Positions 5,096 through 15,329 of a stretch of 58,180 nt of DNA are shown here, in pieces. Every line of letters begins with the position of its first letter. The stretch's first letter is position 1. A program made the translations under genes and the position numbers. The stretch lies in the NCBI GenBank assembly GCA_947305635.1, contig CAMZEG010000001.1, positions 1 to 58,180 on the forward strand, in the 5' to 3' direction. The DNA comes from an uncultured Clostridia bacterium. GTDB lineage: Bacteria > Bacillota > Clostridia > Oscillospirales > Acutalibacteraceae. The notes under the pieces are model-generated. The model was given only the letters and a program-made list of their open reading frames with translations, did no database searches and had not been told where the DNA came from.

Positions 5096-5130
5096 ACAGA
5101 CAGACCACTTTCTGAGAGGAGGCCTTGCGG

Positions 5131-7760
5131 ATGAAGTACATCCAAAAGCTGAAAACGCTGATCAGCATTCTGCTGATTCTCATCACAGGCGGCGGATTCT
5201 TTCCGGGCGTACGGGATTTGCTGAAAGCGGGTGACGTAACCATGATTCAAAACGACCACACGAAATCCTTCTCGACGGTCTTCACCGAGCTGGTTGCCTA
5301 TCCGGGCACCGACGAAGAGCGGCAAAGCTGGCAGCAGGGCATGGTGACCGGCAACGGGGAAAACGGCGCGGTCTGCGCCGGGTCGCCCTATAACGACACG
5401 CTGATCTATCAGAACATCCGCTTTCTGATGCCGACCAACGATCCGCGCTATACACCGGACGAAGTCACGGGCGAACTGGAAGAGGCGCGGCAGGCTGTCA
5501 TCAACGGCGACGACACGTGGGACATCCACGGCCGCGGCGCGACCTATTTCTACGCCTTCCATCCCGGCCCCGTGCTGCGCATGACCGCAAAGAAGCACCT
5601 TTACCGCAACTATATCCGCTGGACCGATTTTGAAACGGCGGAGGTCGGCGTCCGCTACACCGACGTCCGCGGCACCTGGAAGCGGCTCACCTTCTCGTCG
5701 CGGGAGGACAACGTCACGATCACGAAGATCACGAAGTCCAGCCTCGGCGCGAAGATCAACCTGACGCTGTCTCTGGACGACTGCTGGTCCTTGCGCAACT
5801 TCGGCGGCGGCGGAGAAAAGGACATGCGCTACAAGAAGCTGGTCGACGAATACGCCGACTATATCGCGCAGATCGCCCACTACCCCGCCTATGAAAACAG
5901 CGAGCTGAAAAACGGCGGCTACTGCGGTCTGACGCGCGTAATTACGGTGGGCGGCAAAAAGGAACGCGTCGTGCTGGATGAAACGAACGATTCCGAAAAC
6001 GTGGCGCAGGACAAAAACCCCGCGATCAAGATCACCGACGCGGACGCCGTCTATCTCATCACGCAAAGCGACCGCACGTTCGACATGGGCGACATGGCGG
6101 ACTTCGCGGCGGCGACGCGGTACGATCTGCTGGACCGGCTGAACGCTGCGACCGCGGCTGTCGCCGAAAAATACACCGTGAACGGCGCGTTCGATTACGA
6201 CGCGGCGCTTCGGCCGCACGCCGCGCAGCAGTCGGCGCTCTTCAACACGGTCAAATTCGACCTCGGCGACGACGGGAAAGAGGCCGTCCCCAACGAATAC
6301 CTGATCCGGATGCAGCAAAAGAGCGACACGCTGCTGCCCGCGATGGTGGAACGCGCCTACAACCAGGGCCGCTACGTCCAGATCTGCTGCGCAGGCGATT
6401 CGTTCCCGCGCCTGTACGGCATGTGGACGGCGAATGGAACCCGAGCTGGCGTGGCATCTATACGATGGACGCGAACGTCAATTTGCAGTCGTCCGGCATG
6501 AACACCGGCAACATCCGCGAAGCCGGAATCGGCTATATCAAATTCGTACTGCGGCAGATCCCCGACTGGGAGGAGAACGCCGCCAAAACCTACGGGATGA
6601 CCGACGCGATTCAGGTGCCCGTCAACACCGACGGCGACCGCGCGATGATGGTGGAATACAACCGCTGGTACCCGTTCGAATACTGGAACGCCGGAGCAAG
6701 CTGGATGCTGCTGCCGATCTTTGAATTCTGGCAGTGCTACGGCAACACGCAGGTTGAATATAACGGCGAAACGCTGGATCTGGAAAAAGATATCCTGCTG
6801 CCGCTTTTGACGAAGCAGGCGAACTTCTGGGAGCAGCTGTGCACGCCGGAATACTTCACCGACAAGGACGGCAAGGCGTGCTACGAAGCCGGCAAGACAA
6901 AACTGAACGACGGCGAAAAGTATCTGATCATCCCGTCGTATTCGCCCGAAAACGAGCCGCGCAACTACCACTCCCCGATCACGGCTAATGCCGCCATGGA
7001 TATCGCCGCCGCGAAGGACGGCCTGCGCATGACGGTCGAGATGGAAAAAACGATCCAAGCCGCCGGGTATGAAGCGCGTATCGCAAAATGGGAAGCGCTC
7101 GCGGCGCTGCTGCCGGACTATCAGTTCGACGAGACCGGCGCGCTGTGCGAATGGGCGATGCAGGAGTATGAGGAAAACAACAAGCACCGCCATATCAGCC
7201 ACCTGTACGCCGCGTGGCCCGCGTTTGAGACGCAGAACGACTCCGCCCTCGCCGCCGCCTGCAACCAGGCGATTGAAAACCGCAACCGCGAAAACGAGGG
7301 CGAAGACGACACCGCCTCGCACGGCTGGGTGCACAAGGCGCTGGTCGCGGCGCGGCTGAAAAACGCGGACTCCGCCTGCCATTCTTTGTACATGCTGATG
7401 GCCGATCACCTCTATTACACCTCGCTGATGACCGACCACTACACCCATAACAGCTGGGGCGTGTTCTGCACCGACACCTCGATCGGCACGATCGGTGTAA
7501 TCGACGAAATGCTGCTGTATTCCAACGCCGGCGTCATCGAGGCGCTGCCCGCTTTGCCCGCGGCATGGCAGAGCGGCAGCATCAAAGGACTGCGGGCCAG
7601 AACGAACGCGCAGGTCGATCTCACATGGGCCCCCGATTCCGTGACGGTCACGGTCACGAGCGACAAGGCGCAGACGGTCAAAGTCGGCGTCTTCGGCGGC
7701 GAAGCGGAAAGCGCCGCGTTCAGCGAAGGCGAAACAAAGACGTTCACATTCACGCGGTAA
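5131..7760 (+). pseudogene. Glycoside hydrolase family 95-like (alpha-L-fucosidase-like) split by a 1-nt frameshift near 6426
   Basis: ORFs 5125..6501 and 6423..7760 together form one GH95-like protein (N-terminal GNGENGA.., central ..LYGMW|DGEWNPSWRGIYTMDANVNLQ, C-terminal LPALPAAWQSGSIKGLRAR). The frames switch at tgg-gac, where one G appears to be missing. Confidence 0.75.
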
Positions 7761-7824: not shown

Positions 7825-9717
7825 TCAGGTGTTCTGCAGATAATAGATATAGCCGTAGATTGCAAACAGCGGCGGGAACTTTTCGACCAGATTGTTTGCC
7901 TTGATAAAGCCCTGCGGGATCTCTTCGTTCTCGGCGCCGACATGCCACAGATCGGGCGGCGCGTAGCGGATCAGATCCCGGTCAATCGCGGTGAGGTCCT
8001 CATAGGTGAACTCCTGCAATATGGTCACGCCCGCATCCAGCAGATCGCGGTACAGTTCCTCCTGCCTGTTTGCGCGGCAGGGATTCAGGTGGGAGAACTC
8101 CCCTTTTGCCGCGTTCGCCTTCCACCAGCGCCAGGAGAGCTCCGAGCGCTCGATATTGGCAAGCTGTGCTTCGTTGGCTTTCCTTTTGGCGAGCGCCCAG
8201 AGAAGATCGATCCGCGCGACGGTCGCCGAAACGATCGGGCGCATCGTCGCCCACGAGCTGTAAAGGAACGTCATGTGTCCGTCGAACGTGCCGGCATGGT
8301 CGGTAAACAGATCAATGATCTTGCGCATATACTTGCCGCCCGGGCCGTAATAGGCGTTCAGGAAGCCGTCGATCTCGGGATCGAGGTCGCGATAGGGGTC
8401 CTGCATGCACTTGGCGATCATGTAGGCGCGCAGTTCGCCGAATTCCGTGTCGCAGCTGTCAATGAAGTAGTTGCCCTCCGCGAAAACGCCCTTGACGTTG
8501 TTTTCATAGAAGATCTGCATATTCCGCTGAATGGCGCCGAAGTTCGGCATCACGGTGCAGGGGTGCAGATAGTGGGTCGTGTAATCCCAGATATAAAGGC
8601 GGTCGCAAATGGCGGACCACGCTTTCAGATCGTTGTAAAAGGTGCTGTTGCAGTCTGCGTCGAGCGGGTGCGCCATACAGCAGAAGATCGAGCACAGGCG
8701 CACGATCACGTTGTCGCGCGGGACGATGCCCGTGGGCGGCGTCTGGGAATAGAGATAGGCGAACGTATCGACGGCGACGTTTTCATAGCCGTTTTCCTTG
8801 ACGACGTCCGCGATCTGATTGACAAAGTTCAGTATCGTCGCCGACTGCACGCCGCCGTGCGCGGCTTCAAAGGCTTTGCAGGTTTCGCATTGACAGTATT
8901 CGCTGTTGTCGTTCTGCGTCAAGGAGACGATCTGCAACGGCGCCGACGGATCGTGCTTTTCGCGCAGAATCTGCAGCACGTTCTGCGTCGCGATCTCCAA
9001 AACGTCCGGATTCGTCAGGCAGGGCTGCTCCGTCGTCCGCGCGCCGTTATGCAGCGCGAGGTATTCCGGATGGGACTCGGCGTATTTTTCGCTTTCGCAA
9101 AGACCGCCCATTGTGTGGCAGAAGCCGCCGATATAGTCGACGCTGCCGCCCATTTCGGCGGGGATCGACCGGTAGGACCCGGCGGTCAGACCGTTCGCCA
9201 TCGAGTATTCGAGATTGCGCGGACTTCTCCAGTCGGTCTCGGTGTACTCGAAGAACGGTTCATAGACGATATCCGTATTGGCGGGGAAGCTGACGGACGC
9301 CGCCCGGGGCAGCACCGTGATGATTCCGGTGTAGACCTTGCGGTGGCAGAACTCCTCCAGAAAGCGGTAGGCCGCGATCTGCAGTCCGCGCTGGGCGGTA
9401 CCGTTGATATGCAGATTGCCGTCGATCGCCTGGATCCGGTAGCCGTTATCCGCGATAGCCGAGACGTCGGTTTCGGCAGCCGTGCCGACGGCGATGTACT
9501 TGCTTTGCGCCGCAGTGACGGTGCGGACCTCAGCGCCGAAGACCTCGCTGAGCGTGCTGCGCAGTTTTTCGGCAGCGAAGGATTCATAGCTTGTCGGCGC
9601 TTCGGGCGTCAGGATGACCCACGACGCGTCAACTGAAATGTTGTTTTTGGCAAACGCCAGCGGCGCCGCCGAGAGGAGCAGGCAGAATACCAGGATCACG
9701 CAGATGCTTTTTTTCAT
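7825..9717 (-). CDS. DUF4838 domain-containing secreted protein (glycosidase-like)
   Basis: 630 aa with signal peptide MKKSICVILVFCLLLSAAPLAFA and a perfect AAGGAGG RBS. Overall similarity to the DUF4838 family is recalled from memory. Confidence 0.7.
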   Translation of the reverse strand: MKKSICVILVFCLLLSAAPLAFAKNNISVDASWVILTPEAPTSYESFAAEKLRSTLSEVFGAEVRTVTAAQSKYIAVGTAAETDVSAIADNGYRIQAIDGNLHINGTAQRGLQIAAYRFLEEFCHRKVYTGIITVLPRAASVSFPANTDIVYEPFFEYTETDWRSPRNLEYSMANGLTAGSYRSIPAEMGGSVDYIGGFCHTMGGLCESEKYAESHPEYLALHNGARTTEQPCLTNPDVLEIATQNVLQILREKHDPSAPLQIVSLTQNDNSEYCQCETCKAFEAAHGGVQSATILNFVNQIADVVKENGYENVAVDTFAYLYSQTPPTGIVPRDNVIVRLCSIFCCMAHPLDADCNSTFYNDLKAWSAICDRLYIWDYTTHYLHPCTVMPNFGAIQRNMQIFYENNVKGVFAEGNYFIDSCDTEFGELRAYMIAKCMQDPYRDLDPEIDGFLNAYYGPGGKYMRKIIDLFTDHAGTFDGHMTFLYSSWATMRPIVSATVARIDLLWALAKRKANEAQLANIERSELSWRWWKANAAKGEFSHLNPCRANRQEELYRDLLDAGVTILQEFTYEDLTAIDRDLIRYAPPDLWHVGAENEEIPQGFIKANNLVEKFPPLFAIYGYIYYLQNT

Positions 9718-9898
9718 GGTCGGTTCCTCCTTTTTTTTGCGCGGAAACGCAATAATATTGCTCTTCTAAAGTACCATATTTCGCGGCAAATTGCAAGAGG
9801 GATACCGAGAGATTCGGCAAAGAAAAGCACGCATTCAAAAAACGCCCCTGACGGACGGCTGCAGCCGCACCGTGGGAGCGTTTTTCTTAGTCAGGCAG

Positions 9899-11179
9899 TT
9901 ATCCTTCAAAAGCTTCGCGGTTGATCCAGAGGCCGAGGGCGGGGTTGGGGATGAAATAGATCTCCTCCCCGTCGACCTCGTTGTAGCCGTACTGCAGCTT
10001 TGCGGGATCATACTTCTTCGCCGTTTCGTCGTAGTCCGCCGCGTTGAAGCCGACGGAAGCGATCTCTTCTTTCGTGATCTCTTTCACGGCATAGGTGATC
10101 GAAAACCGGCCGTCCGACGAGCCGTGGATCAGGTGCGCCGCCGCGCCCATGTTCTCGCGCAGGTCACTGTTCTCCGGCTGTTTGAACATCTCGAGCGTAT
10201 GCAGGCGGCCTTTGTAGCCGTATTTGCGGATCAGCTGATCCACCCGGTCGTCCTCGCCGAAGCGCTCCACGCCGGGGGCAAGAATGATCAGCTCTCCGCC
10301 GTCCGCCATCGCCATGCGCGTGCGGTAGACGGCCTTGTTGCCGAGCCAGGTGCTCTTGAATTCAGAGGGATCGAGATAGACCACGCACTTTTTGAGCCCG
10401 TGCTCGACAAAGTCGATGTTCTTCTCCTGCGCCAGCTTCACGGCGTTTGTCAGGCAGTCCCGCCCCTCGCCGATAAACAGGCCGTGGGTGCGGATCACGC
10501 CGCCGGGCGCCGTCGTGACGGTCAGGACGAACAGGATCGGGCGCGCTTGCAAAAAGTGCTCCATGCCGTAATCGAACATCTTGCGGACCGGGGTGTGGTC
10601 CTTGCCCATCATGCGCTCCATCCCGTAGACCGCGCCTACCATGTGCGAGCGGTTGATCATCTCGCTGCCGCCCACGCCGACAAAGAAGTTCTTCGCGTGG
10701 TTCGCCATGCCGATCACCTCGTGCGGGACGACCTGCCCCGGGGAGATGATGAGATCGTAGCTTTCGTCCATGACCAGACGGTTGACCTCCACGGCGACCG
10801 CTTCGGTCCAGAGGCCTTCGGTGATCTCGGAGATATAGTCTGCCGGGACCTCGCCGAGCTTGACCACGTCAATGCGCCAGTTATGGACCAGCATCCGCTC
10901 GAACGGAACGTCGCCGAACATGGCGTCCCACTGGGCTTTTGTCACCGGCACATGGGTGCCCAACGCCGGCAGAATGTCGACTTCGACACCCGCGTTCGTC
11001 AGCGCGTGGTAATACACGTTCGTGATATAGCCCGCGTTGGAATGGAAGCGGGTGAAGTCCGGCGGAAGGATCAGGACCTTTTTCAGCGAGCGGCCCTCCA
11101 GAGACGCCAGCAGGGCCGTTTTGATCTCCTCCGGCGTCAGACCGGTTTCCGCTTCGGCAATTCGATAGATATCTTTCAT
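9899..11179 (-). CDS. LarA-like (DUF2088) nickel-pincer-dependent 2-hydroxyacid racemase/epimerase homolog
   Basis: 426 aa. Motifs PPDFTRFHS, ALGTHVP and VVPHEVIGMANHAKN align by eye with the LarA Asp72/Arg75, His108 and His174/Lys184 regions. The start overlaps the HAD stop (ATGA). Confidence 0.75.
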   Translation of the reverse strand: MKDIYRIAEAETGLTPEEIKTALLASLEGRSLKKVLILPPDFTRFHSNAGYITNVYYHALTNAGVEVDILPALGTHVPVTKAQWDAMFGDVPFERMLVHNWRIDVVKLGEVPADYISEITEGLWTEAVAVEVNRLVMDESYDLIISPGQVVPHEVIGMANHAKNFFVGVGGSEMINRSHMVGAVYGMERMMGKDHTPVRKMFDYGMEHFLQARPILFVLTVTTAPGGVIRTHGLFIGEGRDCLTNAVKLAQEKNIDFVEHGLKKCVVYLDPSEFKSTWLGNKAVYRTRMAMADGGELIILAPGVERFGEDDRVDQLIRKYGYKGRLHTLEMFKQPENSDLRENMGAAAHLIHGSSDGRFSITYAVKEITKEEIASVGFNAADYDETAKKYDPAKLQYGYNEVDGEEIYFIPNPALGLWINREAFEG

Positions 11180-12015
11180 GGCTCATTCTCCCAAAGAAAA
11201 TGGTGTATCGCGTGGGCGACGCCGCTGTCGCCGCAGTCGTCCGTGATATAGTCCGCGGCCTGTTTGACCGAGTTCTCCGCGTTCCCCATGGCGACGCCGA
11301 TTCCCGCTGCCTGCAGCATGGAAAGATCGTTGCGGTCGTCGCCGAACGCCATCGTCTGCGCGACCGGGATATCGAGATACGCCGCCAGCTTTTGCAGCGC
11401 GACGCCCTTGGTGGCGTCCCGGCTGTTGATCTCGATATTGTTGACGATCGAGGTCGTCACGACGAGATCGGGAAACAGTTCCGGCAGTGACTGCAGCGCT
11501 TCGGCGCGCTTTTCCATATCGCGGAAGAAGATCTGGATCTTCTGGACGCCCGTCGCCCGCGCCTGCAGACAGGCCTTGAGTTCCGGCACGGGCGTGCGCA
11601 GATTGCGGATCATATCCAGACTGTGGATGTTGGCGGCATATTGGTCCGCCTTGTCGTAAAACGCCTGCGTCATCCAGCCCCAGCCGTCCTGATAGCAGTC
11701 GTAGATCACGTCCAGCTCATCCAGCCGCTCCATGACTTCCACCGCGCGCTGCCAGGGAATCTCCGAGCCGCAGACGGTTTTCTGTCGCGCGATGTCGTAG
11801 ACGGCGGCGCCGTTGATCGAGATCACGTAGCGGACATAGGGCAGATCCCGGATCAGCTGCGGCATGCCGCGGTAGAACCGGCCGGTTGCGGGGACGATCT
11901 CAACCCCCGCTTCGGCCGCTTTTGCAAGCGCCGCCGCGTTCTCCGCGGAAAGACGCTTGTCGGCGTCGAGGAGCGTGCCGTCCAGATCCAGCGCGATCAG
12001 CCTGATGTTATGCAT
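11176..12015 (-). CDS. Cof-type HAD-IIB family hydrolase (sugar phosphatase-like)
   Basis: MHNIRLIALDLDGTLL... includes the DxDGT motif, and later FGDDRNDLSM. ATG at 12013-12015 overlaps the gnd stop by 8 nt. Confidence 0.85.
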   Translation of the reverse strand: MHNIRLIALDLDGTLLDADKRLSAENAAALAKAAEAGVEIVPATGRFYRGMPQLIRDLPYVRYVISINGAAVYDIARQKTVCGSEIPWQRAVEVMERLDELDVIYDCYQDGWGWMTQAFYDKADQYAANIHSLDMIRNLRTPVPELKACLQARATGVQKIQIFFRDMEKRAEALQSLPELFPDLVVTTSIVNNIEINSRDATKGVALQKLAAYLDIPVAQTMAFGDDRNDLSMLQAAGIGVAMGNAENSVKQAADYITDDCGDSGVAHAIHHFLWENEP

Positions 12016-13459
12016 TGTAGGTGGTTGCCGCGGTGTTGCCGCCGTGGCCGGTCCAGTTGGTGTGGAAGAACTCGCCTCTGGGCGCGTCGACTCTTTCATA
12101 GGTATGGGCGCCGAAGTAGTCGCGCTGGGCCTGCAGCAGATTCGCCGGCAGACGCGCGGTGGTGTAGCCGTCAAAATAGCTGAGCGCGCTTGTCATGGCC
12201 GGCGCCGGAACGCCGTACTGCACCGCCGCCGCGGCGACTTTACGCCACGCCGGGACCAGCTTTTCGATCGTGGCCTTGAAATAAGGAGCGAGGATCAGGT
12301 TCTTGAGATCGGGGTCGGCCTCATAGGCTTCCTTGATCTTGCCGAGGAAGACCGAACGGATGATGCAGCCGCCGCGCCACATCAGCGCGATGCCGCCGTA
12401 GTTGAGGTTCCAGCCGTAGTGGTCGGCCGCGGTGCGCATCAGGGTATAGCCCTGCGCGTAGGAGATGATCTTGGAGGCGAACAGCGCCTGCCGGATCGCT
12501 TCGACCATCTCCGCCTTGTCACCTGCGAACGCGGGGATCTTTCTGTCAAAGACCTTTGCGGCCTCAACGCGTTCCTCTTTCATGGCGGACAGGCATCTCG
12601 CGAAGACCGCTTCGCCGATCAGGGTCAAAGGCACTCCCTCGTCGAGCGCCGCGATCCCGGTCCATTTGCCGGTGCCCTTCTGGCCCGCGGTGTCGAGGAT
12701 TTTCTCCGCCAGCGGCGCGCCGTCGGTGTCCTTATAGGCGAGAATGTCGCGGGTGATCTCGACCAGATAGCTGTCGAGTTCGGTCTCGTTCCACTGCTTG
12801 AATGTCTCGTGCATTTCGTCATAGCTCATGCCGAGCAGATCGCGCATCAGCTGGTACGCTTCGCAGATCAACTGCATATCGCCGTATTCGATGCCGTTGT
12901 GGACCATCTTGACAAAGTGGCCCGCGCCGTTTTCGCCGACCCAGTCGCAGCAGGGTTCACCGTTTTCCACTTTCGCGCAGATACCCTGGAAAATGGGTTT
13001 GACATAGGGCCACGCCGCCGGAGAGCCGCCGGGCATCATGCTCGGGCCCTTGAGCGCTCCCTCTTCGCCGCCGGAAACGCCGGTACCGATATAGAGTTTG
13101 CCCTTGGATTCGACATACGCGGTTCTGCGCATGGTGTCGGGAAAGTGGGAGTTGCCGCCGTCGATAATAATGTCGCCGTCCTCCAGAAGCGGCAGCAGCC
13201 GGTCGATCATCGCGTCCACGGAGGGGCCGGCCTTGATCATCATGAAGACCTTGCGCGGCTTTTCGAGATTCGCGATCAGCGCTTCGAGGCTGTGGCAGCC
13301 GATGATATTCTTGCCTTTTGCGCGGCCGTTGATAAAGTCGTCCACCTTGGACGTGGTGCGGTTGAAGACCGCGACGGTGAAGCCCTTGGACTCCATGTTC
13401 ATCACGAGGTTTTCGCCCATGACGGCGAGTCCGATCAAACCGATATCAGCTTTTTTCAT
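12008..13459 (-). CDS. gnd: 6-phosphogluconate dehydrogenase, decarboxylating
   Basis: 483 aa starting MKKADIGLIGLAVMGENLVMNM..., with GVSGGEEGA and an overall unmistakable Gnd sequence. AGGAGG RBS present. Confidence 0.95.
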   Translation of the reverse strand: MKKADIGLIGLAVMGENLVMNMESKGFTVAVFNRTTSKVDDFINGRAKGKNIIGCHSLEALIANLEKPRKVFMMIKAGPSVDAMIDRLLPLLEDGDIIIDGGNSHFPDTMRRTAYVESKGKLYIGTGVSGGEEGALKGPSMMPGGSPAAWPYVKPIFQGICAKVENGEPCCDWVGENGAGHFVKMVHNGIEYGDMQLICEAYQLMRDLLGMSYDEMHETFKQWNETELDSYLVEITRDILAYKDTDGAPLAEKILDTAGQKGTGKWTGIAALDEGVPLTLIGEAVFARCLSAMKEERVEAAKVFDRKIPAFAGDKAEMVEAIRQALFASKIISYAQGYTLMRTAADHYGWNLNYGGIALMWRGGCIIRSVFLGKIKEAYEADPDLKNLILAPYFKATIEKLVPAWRKVAAAAVQYGVPAPAMTSALSYFDGYTTARLPANLLQAQRDYFGAHTYERVDAPRGEFFHTNWTGHGGNTAATTYNA

Positions 13460-13476
13460 GTCAAATCATCCTCCTT

Positions 13477-14535
13477 TTATCGTTGCACACGGGCGTTGCC
13501 CTTGTATACATCCCAGACCTGCTTTTCGTCCGCGGGTTCCGCGTAGTCGTTGAGACTGCTGGCCGCCAGCACGCCGGTGGCCCAGCCGAACTGCAGCCAT
13601 TTGTCGGGCGTCCATTCCTTGAGCACGCCGTAGAGCAGACCGCCGGAGAAGCCGTCGCCGCCGCCGATGCGGTCCATGACCTGGATCGGTCTTGGCTCTT
13701 CGACATACCAGCTGCCGTCCGCCCAAAGGATCGCGCCCCAGAGGTGCTCGTTGGCGGAGACCACCTGCCGCAGCGTCGTCGCATAGGCGCGCGCCTGCGG
13801 GTACTTTGCTCTGACCTGGTCGATCATGCTTTGGAAGCGCTCGATTTTGGACGCGAGCTCTTTGCCGCCGGCTTCGGGACCATGGAAGCCCAGACAGAGC
13901 TGGAAGTCCTCCTCGTTGCCGATCAGGATGTCGGCGACACTAGCGATCTCATGGAAGGCGCTGCGCAGTTCCTCTTCGCGGCCCTTCCAGAACGTCGCGC
14001 GGTAGTTGAGGTCGAAGCTGACGAGCGTGCCGTACTGCTTGGCCTTTTTCGCGATCTCAAGGCAGCACTTGGTCGTCGCCTCGCTCATCGCGGCAATCAG
14101 ACCGGAGAGGTGGAAGATGCAGACGCCCTCTTCCCCGAAGATGCGGTCGAGGTCGAAATCGTCGGCGGAAAGCGTCCGGCCGATCTCGCCGGCGCGGTCG
14201 TTCCAGACGCGCGGCGCCCGCAGCCCGAAGCCGGAATCCGCGATATTGAACTGGTGCCGGTAGCCCCAGGGGCCGCCCTGCGGCACCTCTTTTCCCTCAA
14301 AGCGGATATTGCGCGCGCGCAGCTGCCGCCGGATGAAGTCCGCCATCGGCGAACCCTCAACGAATTTTGTCATGGCAAGGCATTCGTTGCCGAGACTGGA
14401 CGCCACGTTCAGAACGTTGGTCTCGGCCGAGGTCGCCTGCAGGTAGAACAGGTTGCTGTTCTGTACTGCCATGCGGTCCTGCGGGGTGATTCTGAGGCCC
14501 ATGCTGGTGACTGTGGCGATTGCGTATTTTTTCAT
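13477..14535 (-). CDS. PfkB-family sugar / sugar-acid kinase (KdgK-like)
   Basis: The C-terminal DRIGGGDGFSGGLLYG motif is typical of the ribokinase/PfkB family. ATG at 14533-14535 follows AAGGAG. Confidence 0.85.
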   Translation of the reverse strand: MKKYAIATVTSMGLRITPQDRMAVQNSNLFYLQATSAETNVLNVASSLGNECLAMTKFVEGSPMADFIRRQLRARNIRFEGKEVPQGGPWGYRHQFNIADSGFGLRAPRVWNDRAGEIGRTLSADDFDLDRIFGEEGVCIFHLSGLIAAMSEATTKCCLEIAKKAKQYGTLVSFDLNYRATFWKGREEELRSAFHEIASVADILIGNEEDFQLCLGFHGPEAGGKELASKIERFQSMIDQVRAKYPQARAYATTLRQVVSANEHLWGAILWADGSWYVEEPRPIQVMDRIGGGDGFSGGLLYGVLKEWTPDKWLQFGWATGVLAASSLNDYAEPADEKQVWDVYKGNARVQR

Positions 14536-14700
14536 AACTGACACTCCTTTACACACTGCTTTCGGCCGGTGATTTTTGATATAAAGTATTAATTTATATT
14601 ATCATATTGCGCGCCAAAAATCAAGAATTTCGCGTCAGATTGTTCCATCCGGTCGCCTCCCTTCTTCTTTCGGTGGTGCAACTGATTACTGCATTGCCGA

Positions 14701-15093
14701 TTATGTCTGCTGATCGTTCAGGGTTGCCTCCACTTTGTTCAGCGTGGTAAAGAACCGGTGCGTGGCGACCATCGGCCCGCACAGCAGCATGCCGAAGATG
14801 TTCCAGCCGAACATGTGCCACCAAGAAGTGTATGGCCCTTCGACGCCGAGCGCGATCGCCTTTGCCTTCAGCTCTTCCGCAATGCGCGCCATCCAGACGA
14901 GGGTATAGATGAACAGGGTCGGGATGCCGAGCAGATAGGCCTGCCAGTACGGCCGCACCTTGTGTCCCAGCACGTCTTCCAGTTCCGCCTGCAGACCGCC
15001 GAACGGCATATACAACAGAAAGAACAGACCCGCCGTGAAGAAATCGATAAACCCGAGCAGAAAACCGCAGCGGTTGGTATGTTTGAAACGCAT
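14701..15093 (-). CDS. Small membrane protein (DUF4234-like)
   Basis: 130 aa with 3-4 hydrophobic segments. ATG at 15091-15093 lies 6 nt after GAGGTG. Confidence 0.5.
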   Translation of the reverse strand: MRFKHTNRCGFLLGFIDFFTAGLFFLLYMPFGGLQAELEDVLGHKVRPYWQAYLLGIPTLFIYTLVWMARIAEELKAKAIALGVEGPYTSWWHMFGWNIFGMLLCGPMVATHRFFTTLNKVEATLNDQQT

Positions 15094-15236
15094 AACACTC
15101 ACCTCATCAAAGACAGTTGTCATAAACTACGGTTTCATTATACTCCGAACCCTGCGAAAACGCAAGGAAGAACCAAGGTTTCGTTTCAGGGCGTTTCTCA
15201 TCCCGCGAAACCCGCCGCGCAGAATCAAGAATTTCC

Positions 15237-15265
15237 TTGACATTCCCGCGATATCAAGATAAAAT
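15237..15265 (+). promoter_or_regulatory. Sigma-A-type promoter
   Basis: TTGACA, 17 nt, TAAAAT, about 60 nt upstream of the 15330 start. Confidence 0.45.
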
Positions 15266-15329
15266 GATTCTAGCACTTGTCAAAGCCAAAATTCACGGTT
15301 CCAAAGAAACGGCCAAAGGAGAAATGAAA

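Follow-up and report, generated by a model that had tools for sequence, protein, structure and literature searches.

The subject of this report is a minus-strand cassette of four genes, encoding a PfkB-family kinase, 6-phosphogluconate dehydrogenase (Gnd), a HAD phosphatase, and a LarA homolog (LarAH), in a 58,180-nt stretch of contig CAMZEG010000001.1 (GCA_947305635.1) from an uncultured rumen Clostridia bacterium of the Acutalibacteraceae; this whole stretch is called the window below. On sequence comparison, the cassette probably encodes a route from D-mannonate to D-gluconate (by a nickel-pincer nucleotide (NPN)-dependent epimerase of LarAH group 18, here LarAH18), from gluconate to 6-phosphogluconate (by the PfkB kinase), and from there to ribulose-5-phosphate (by Gnd). 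From gene order, family membership, residues, neighbours, and fusions, all described below, we infer the substrates, the order of the steps, the loading of the cofactor, and the role of the phosphatase. A route from an aldonate over gluconate and 6-phosphogluconate to Gnd had been suggested in a first-pass annotation of the window made from the letters alone; it is supported by the family and residues of the epimerase, by neighbours that make mannonate, and by fusions with GntK. Both the route and the enzyme family have already been published, and the cassette is a sound annotation and not a new kind of system. It allows the confident annotation of a cassette that abounds in rumen and gut Clostridia, where thousands of close homologs are labelled merely 'DUF2088' or 'lactate racemase'; it would represent a dehydratase-independent, nickel-dependent, NADPH-yielding way of turning uronic acids into pentose phosphate; and it points to the group-18 epimerase, the PfkB-type hexonate kinase, and the associated HAD phosphatase as biochemical targets.

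Family, residues, and neighbours of the LarA homolog

The LarA homolog matches NF052594 ('nickel-dependent putative hexonate epimerase') with 621.7 bits over model positions 3–410 of 411 (cut-off 500; 621.4 bits in the genome-wide profile search). In Desguin 2020 the counterpart of this model is LarAH group 18, of which the protein is a member by curated cut-off; a look-up of the exact protein gave no identical record. Among solved structures the protein is nearest to 4NAR (T. maritima GntE2 apoprotein; E 1e-33), and a 34-member family profile further picks up 2YJG (LarA, T. thermosaccharolyticum), 6D6Z (Mar2), and 8EZF/5HUQ (L. plantarum LarA), the link to the last being remote and made by the family profile only (E 9e-8).

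Residues were mapped by alignments to 4NAR, 2YJG, 6D6Z, and 8EZF/5HUQ and by the 34-sequence family alignment (Table 1). The NPN-site residues that had been aligned by eye in the first-pass annotation (D..R, GTH, and PH...K) are now placed by real alignments to solved structures and to the family, and the loss of the catalytic His/Lys residues, raised there as a possible refutation, is not borne out, as all catalytic and cofactor residues are aligned. D41, R44, H76, H153, K163, H179, and K282 are each conserved in at least 90% of the 34 family members; the catalytic histidines H76/H153 and the helpers D41/K282 align with 4NAR, 2YJG, and 8EZF/5HUQ; the NPN-site spacing H-10-K-16-H is kept (H153 +10 is K163, K163 +16 is H179). 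GntEs are recognised as such by E, V, A, and H where LarA has F175, F176, W358, and T359 (Urdiain-Arraiza 2024, PMC11770544). This signature is present in the window protein as E154, V155, A348, and H349 (mapped by sequence alignment); E154, A348, and H349 are conserved in at least 90% of the family alignment, and A348-H349 align with AAH of 4NAR. The subfamily of the protein, left to later phylogenetic placement in the first-pass annotation, is given by profile and alignment as LarAH group 18 with a GntE-type signature, and from family membership and residues an NPN-dependent D-mannonate/D-gluconate 2-epimerase is predicted.

The cassette was compared with 80 related loci from species-representative genomes by tblastn and clustering of open reading frames (ORFs). 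The LarAH18 family is very abundant in metagenome-assembled genomes (MAGs) of rumen and gut Clostridia, with at least 8000 candidates; the best 120 of the at least 8000 matches to the LarA homolog are 84–100% identical to it. All cassette genes of the window are intact, with 86–96% protein identity to many relatives. The core order kinase-gnd-...-LarAH is kept wherever the contig reaches, apart from two loci (L063, L077) that are rearranged with the genes retained, and the kinase gene stands directly upstream of gnd in all loci with sufficient contig except these two. Because the order is conserved in 80 loci of other genomes, the grouping of the genes is not due to chance.

Between gnd and the epimerase gene are found the HAD gene (48 of the 80 loci), a gene for a short-chain dehydrogenase/reductase (SDR) of 280 amino acids (aa) (about 40 of the 80), or both; against NF006132 ('D-mannonate oxidoreductase'; cut-off 281) the SDR reaches 435 and 430 bits. 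Downstream of the epimerase gene are found UxaC, glucuronate isomerase (23/80 loci; 666 bits); UxaE, tagaturonate/fructuronate epimerase (7/80; 539 bits); an AraC regulator (4/80); and UxuA with a long-chain mannonate dehydrogenase, UxuB (3/80). The recurrent neighbours of the cassette all make or use D-mannonate, and the presence of SDR, UxaC, and UxaE in related cassettes points to mannonate as the substrate.

The product is indicated by gene fusions. An N-terminal gluconokinase of the GntK/IdnK type is fused to LarAH18 in four cluster representatives (P0123, P0126, P0139, P0146), as found in an exhaustive search of the representatives. The fused kinase domains score 124–180 bits on TIGR01313 (cut-off 113.75; the model covers GntK and IdnK), and the epimerase part lies above the NF052594 cut-off in three of the four. 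P0126 (L105:7001-8767) sits in an operon UxaC-SDR-GntK::LarAH18 that adjoins a TonB-dependent receptor; another distant member lies in an operon MFS-Gnd-UxaC-SDR-LarAH. The fusions tie the epimerase to the phosphorylation of gluconate, and thereby point to gluconate as the product. A fusion of another type was also seen: P0130 (823 aa), a group-18-like LarA homolog with a C-terminal domain of the N-acylglucosamine 2-epimerase (AGE) family, combines two different 2-epimerase folds in one protein.

Proposed route and partner enzymes in the source genome

The source MAG of the window (G000; 2.05 Mb, 210 contigs, 76% complete) holds UxaC on contig C38 (NF002794, 600 bits), an SDR mannonate oxidoreductase on contig C12 (429 bits), Eda on contig C191, and a single copy of gnd. 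All parts of a Thermotoga-type epimerase branch (UxaC, fructuronate reductase, epimerase, kinase, Gnd) are thus present in one genome, not in one locus. Profile searches of the assembled part of this genome found no UxuA, Zwf, or UxaE, and no canonical GntK (best FGGY match 179 vs 648; no P-loop GntK). As no UxuA was found, mannonate is without a dehydratase in the assembled part; as neither Zwf nor GntK was found, the operon kinase is there the only candidate source of 6-phosphogluconate for Gnd and the only candidate gluconate kinase, which agrees with the earlier idea of a non-canonical PfkB kinase.

This kinase matches PF00294 with 67.8 bits (Pfam). Its best NCBIfam match is the kinase half of NF041633, a fusion of 2-keto-3-deoxy-6-phosphogluconate (KDPG) aldolase and kinase (172 bits over 337 model positions; cut-off 700); it lies below every KdgK equivalog cut-off (89.4 vs 440, 53.8 vs 400, 27.8 vs 400), and in the PDB it comes closest to 4GM6 and 2AFB (T. 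maritima 2-keto-3-deoxygluconate (KDG) kinase). Judged by the NCBIfam models, it is a PfkB-fold relative and not a KdgK. It also stands outside the canonical gluconokinase families (P-loop GntK/IdnK, TIGR01313; FGGY, TIGR01314), and it may act like a gluconokinase without membership of the GntK or FGGY family; the predicted activity is that of a D-gluconate 6-kinase, or of a mannonate kinase under the alternative weighed below. A second PfkB gene, cut by the contig end, was seen on contig C130 (L102:1009-1797, minus strand); its product shares 40% identity with the operon kinase and stands nearer to the KdgK type fused to Eda (231.6 bits over 256 model positions, vs 172 over 337). The genome's true KDG kinase is probably this C130 protein; the second PfkB and Eda are available for a KDG branch.

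Gnd scores 759.1 bits on TIGR00873 (cut-off 426.7) and carries full-length PF03446 and PF00393. The HAD phosphatase scores 174.4 bits on TIGR00099 (cut-off 137) and 197 bits on PF08282; its motifs, DxDGT (D10, D12, T14), K203, D226, and D230, are invariant in an alignment of 21 orthologs, and it reaches no substrate-specific equivalog (YidA-type, 132.6 vs 273). The phosphatase is optional across lineages; in one of them an in-frame HAD::epimerase fusion (P0089, 710 aa; L007:8001-10133, L008, L009) was observed, on three contigs that all come from the samples of one study.

In hexuronate catabolism the cassette would supply the lower half of the 'epimerase branch'. Glucuronate of plant or host glycan origin would be isomerised by UxaC, and the product would be reduced to D-mannonate by the SDR-type fructuronate reductase, both encoded on other contigs (C38 and C12). 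The LarA homolog would then invert C2 of D-mannonate to give D-gluconate, with K163 as the tether of the NPN and H76/H153 as acid/base; the KdgK-like PfkB kinase would phosphorylate C6 of gluconate; and Gnd would convert the 6-phosphogluconate to ribulose-5-phosphate, CO2, and NADPH. Such a route would bypass mannonate dehydratase, and would be the only visible source of 6-phosphogluconate where no Zwf is found. The HAD phosphatase would be accessory, either as a relief valve for 6-phosphogluconate or as a proofreading phosphatase for mis-phosphorylated mannonate; of its conceivable roles we would rank the relief valve first, proofreading second, and that of an unrelated passenger last.

Cofactor supply and alternative readings

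Several points weigh against the proposed route. Epimerisation of D-mannonate to D-gluconate has been shown for LarAH groups 19 and 20 (GntE1, GntE2), which in itself speaks for the route, as does the published association of group 18 with Gnd and a COG0524 kinase; but for group 18 only the epimerisation of 'a hexonate' was hypothesised (PMC7583248). Extracts of L. suebicus phosphorylate mannonate and then epimerise 6-phosphomannonate, with no gene assigned (Valk 2020, PMC6978723). A search of the literature found no PfkB-family gluconokinase, and the kinase of the cassette is KdgK-like. The simple route leaves the HAD phosphatase and the HAD::epimerase fusion unaccounted for. As to the cofactor, neither larB nor larE was found above cut-off in the 76%-complete, 210-contig source genome, and another genome of the same order (G028, 96% complete) has LarAH18 without larB, larC, or larE.

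The genome-wide search for larB, larC, and larE that had been proposed as a check of the first-pass annotation came out divided in the source MAG: larC is present (207.5 bits; 4.2-kb contig C159, L104:2528-3742), larB and larE are missing from the matches above cut-off, and the best LarB match is PurE-like (38.7 bits). The sole lar match thus lies on another contig, in line with the earlier remark that the window holds no larBCE. Among 40 other LarAH18 genomes, 23 have larB, larC, and larE (usually adjacent), 7 have larC only, 1 has larE only, and 9 have none; among 30 sampled relatives, three have all three genes and four have larB. A same-genus carrier (G081, 97% complete) has a single contig with larB, larC, and larE; the other same-genus carrier (85% complete) has larC only, as in G000. 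The enrichment of lar genes in carriers and the congener G081 favour NPN dependence, and the simplest cause of the larC-only and no-lar patterns is incompleteness of the assemblies.

The larC-only pattern is recurrent (G000, G032/G074, G042, G043, G046, G048, G065, G068, G001). No gene that might replace larB or larE near larC is shared across 11 clustered neighbourhoods, a short downstream ORF cluster being found in 4 of the 11. On C159 itself a gene resembling streptogramin A O-acetyltransferases of the Vat family (L104:1307-1942; 255.6 bits, below the 300-bit cut-off) lies upstream of larC, with one P-loop ORF between them.

It appears rather unlikely that the two middle steps run in the reverse order, with the PfkB kinase as a D-mannonate 6-kinase, the LarA homolog as a 6-phosphomannonate/6-phosphogluconate 2-epimerase, and the HAD phosphatase acting on a phosphorylated hexonate. 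Both activities have been demonstrated in the L. suebicus extracts (PMC6978723), the activity of group 18 is a hypothesis only (PMC7583248), the kinase is a diverged KdgK-like PfkB protein and not a GntK homolog, and the phosphatase adjoins the epimerase and is sometimes fused to it, which hints at phosphorylated hexonates being handled there. Against this order speak the gluconokinase domains of the GntK/IdnK type that are fused to LarAH18, as GntK of E. coli is reported to be inactive on mannonate (cited in PMC6978723); the pocket signature, which matches that of GntEs active on free mannonate in vitro; and the futile cycle that would result from a phosphatase acting on an intermediate of its own pathway. 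We see only a small chance that group-18 LarA homologs and PfkB kinases are the missing L. suebicus genes, or, in a softer version, that a promiscuous PfkB kinase makes 6-phosphomannonate as a dead end, which the embedded or fused HAD phosphatase would proofread, returning mannonate to the epimerase. If either version were true, genes would be at hand for orphan activities, together with the first case of an NPN enzyme that uses a phosphorylated sugar acid or is coupled to one.

Still less probable is an epimerase that acts on some other hexonate or 2-hydroxy sugar acid (e.g., an L-gulonate/L-idonate or altronate-type pair), with a product that still reaches the substrate of Gnd. IdnK-type kinases belong to the L-idonate pathway, and TIGR01313 spans both GntK and IdnK. 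Likewise, Desguin 2020 speaks only of 'a hexonate' for group 18 and allows that the native substrate of GntE1 may be an isomer of mannonate (PMC7583248). The recurrent neighbours, however, are D-mannonate oxidoreductase, UxaC, UxaE, and (in three loci) UxuA/UxuB, which make or use D-mannonate, and Gnd is the canonical enzyme of 6-phosphogluconate. Very improbable, finally, is an ordinary KDG kinase in a mixed bag of genes, which would leave the LarA homolog and Gnd without a kinase of their own, or an epimerase that is non-functional here for want of its cofactor. The best family matches of the kinase are of the KDG-kinase types, Eda is present, and larB and larE were not found in the incomplete MAG; but the kinase falls under all KdgK cut-offs, a second PfkB nearer to the KdgK type exists, the adjacency and coupling of kinase gene and gnd are conserved in the informative loci, no other source of 6-phosphogluconate was found in the genome, and the genes are intact and highly conserved among many relatives. 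A 'phosphatase-first' shunt from 6-phosphogluconate over gluconate and mannonate to KDG was rejected, since the genome search gave no UxuA and the relatives have mannonate-producing enzymes as neighbours. An internal oxidative route from UDP-glucuronate, with the HAD phosphatase acting on glucuronate-1-phosphate, is pure speculation.

Transcription unit, flanks, and known systems

The four minus-strand genes were confirmed at their positions by reading the strand from 9700 to 15300 and by the list of ORFs (Table 1), and they are one transcription unit, without a gene for a regulator or transporter. The tight junctions are all as first described: a gap of 17 nt between kinase gene and gnd, with AAGGAGG beginning in or beside the TAA stop of the kinase gene; an overlap of 8 nt between gnd and the HAD gene (ATGCATAA); and an overlap of 4 nt between the HAD and LarA-like genes (ATGA). 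The kinase might also start at a GTG lying seven codons further upstream, though the alignment with relatives begins at the ATG.

Table 1 Features of the cassette in the window, and residues of its LarA homolog with their equivalents in LarA. Minus-strand features are marked (-).
Feature	Position or LarA equivalent	Strand	Basis or remark
PfkB-family sugar-acid kinase, 352 aa	ATG 14535 to stop 13477	(-)	KdgK-like; PF00294
gnd, decarboxylating NADP-dependent 6-phosphogluconate dehydrogenase, 483 aa	12008..13459	(-)	TIGR00873
Cof-type HAD-IIB phosphatase, 279 aa	11176..12015	(-)	TIGR00099, PF08282
LarA homolog, group 18, 426 aa	9899..11179	(-)	Lar_N, NF052594
Putative cassette promoter	-35 TTGATT 14624-14619; 17-nt spacer; TG-extended -10 TAATAT 14601-14596	(-)	by eye and conservation
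Putative palindromic intrinsic terminator, 3' of LarA-like gene	9838..9885	(-)	27-nt palindrome
D41/R44 of LarA homolog	LarA D72/R75		alignment
H76 of LarA homolog	LarA H108		alignment
H153 of LarA homolog	LarA H174		alignment
K163 of LarA homolog	LarA K184 (tethering Lys)		alignment
H179 of LarA homolog	LarA H200 (Ni-ligand His)		alignment
K282 of LarA homolog	LarA K298		alignment

The closest related loci share the promoter motif ahead of their kinase genes; in the window, a consensus promoter scan with a threshold of 9/12 called no promoter on the minus strand in front of this gene, the promoter identified by eye scoring 8/12. At the other end, a terminator scan placed a terminator-like site at 9857-9843 (minus strand), with a run of T behind it. 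In close relatives (L010, L011, L014, L015) the conserved -10 is closely followed by an inverted repeat TGATAT-N3-ATATCA, of which the left arm is degenerate (TAATAC) in the window (14576-14592, minus strand); this repeat is a candidate operator at the start of transcription.

DNA homology to all related loci (L006, L010-L039, L128, L129) is confined to 9895-14645, that is, to the four genes and the promoter. In the two same-genus carriers it is likewise restricted to the cassette (85–87% identity), with flanks that have no match, and LarAH18 is carried by only 3 of the 117 species representatives of the genus. The cassette is flanked in the window by genes for a DUF4838 protein, a frameshifted GH95 protein, a DUF4234 protein, and an ABC ATPase; the flanks in L006, a 96%-identical relative, are unrelated housekeeping genes. 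At the borders of the cassette no terminal or transposon-like repeats were found, only the terminator palindrome, and the GC content is 0.61 in the cassette and 0.59 in the genome. The cassette thus seems to be a self-contained module that is horizontally exchanged or often relocated, without recognisable ends of a mobile element. The GH95 gene (plus strand, 5125-7760) is broken into two frames: 5125-6501 holds a GH65N-like N-terminal domain and the first part of the catalytic domain, and 6423-7760 the remainder of the catalytic domain and the C-terminal domain; this split agrees with the frameshift noticed earlier from the letters. A search of sequencing runs listed no RNA run, and gave partial DNA matches only, in bovine and gut metagenomes.

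A hexuronate epimerase branch in Thermotoga maritima was reportedly proposed by Rodionova in 2012. In this branch (uxaE-uxaD-gntE-gntK with gnd) the logic is the same, from fructuronate over mannonate, gluconate, and 6-phosphogluconate to ribulose-5-phosphate; the epimerases are homologous (E 1e-33 to 4NAR) and agree in their catalytic, NPN, and specificity residues, and gnd lies in the same operon neighbourhood. GntE2 of Thermotoga is TM0442, of LarAH group 20 (PDB 4NAR), and its activity was shown by Desguin 2020 (PMC7583248). The window differs in having an epimerase of group 18 and not 20 (about 30% identity), a PfkB/KdgK-like kinase non-homologous to Thermotoga GntK, an inserted HAD gene, uxaC and the SDR gene on other contigs, and no regulator or transporter in the cassette.

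The galacturonate pathway of L. suebicus likewise leads from mannonate to 6-phosphogluconate by a kinase and a 2-epimerase, followed by Gnd, in a redox-neutral conversion of uronate to pentose phosphate (Valk 2020, PMC6978723); its order of steps is reversed relative to the one favoured here, and the kinase suspected in L. suebicus is homologous to GntK rather than a PfkB protein. LarA of L. plantarum (5HUQ) belongs to the same Lar_N fold family and has the same D/R, His, His, Lys, His set for the NPN and proton-coupled hydride transfer; the pocket of the window protein has E,V/A,H in place of F,F/W,T, and the predicted reaction is epimerisation of a sugar acid, not racemisation of lactate. 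For LarAH group 18 itself the published neighbour statistics (SDR 36%, Gnd 32%, COG0524 kinase 16%, UxaC 12%, KduI 12%; PMC7583248) match the context of the cassette; nothing essential differs, the lineage of the window having added the HAD gene and lost the SDR and UxaC genes from the cassette.

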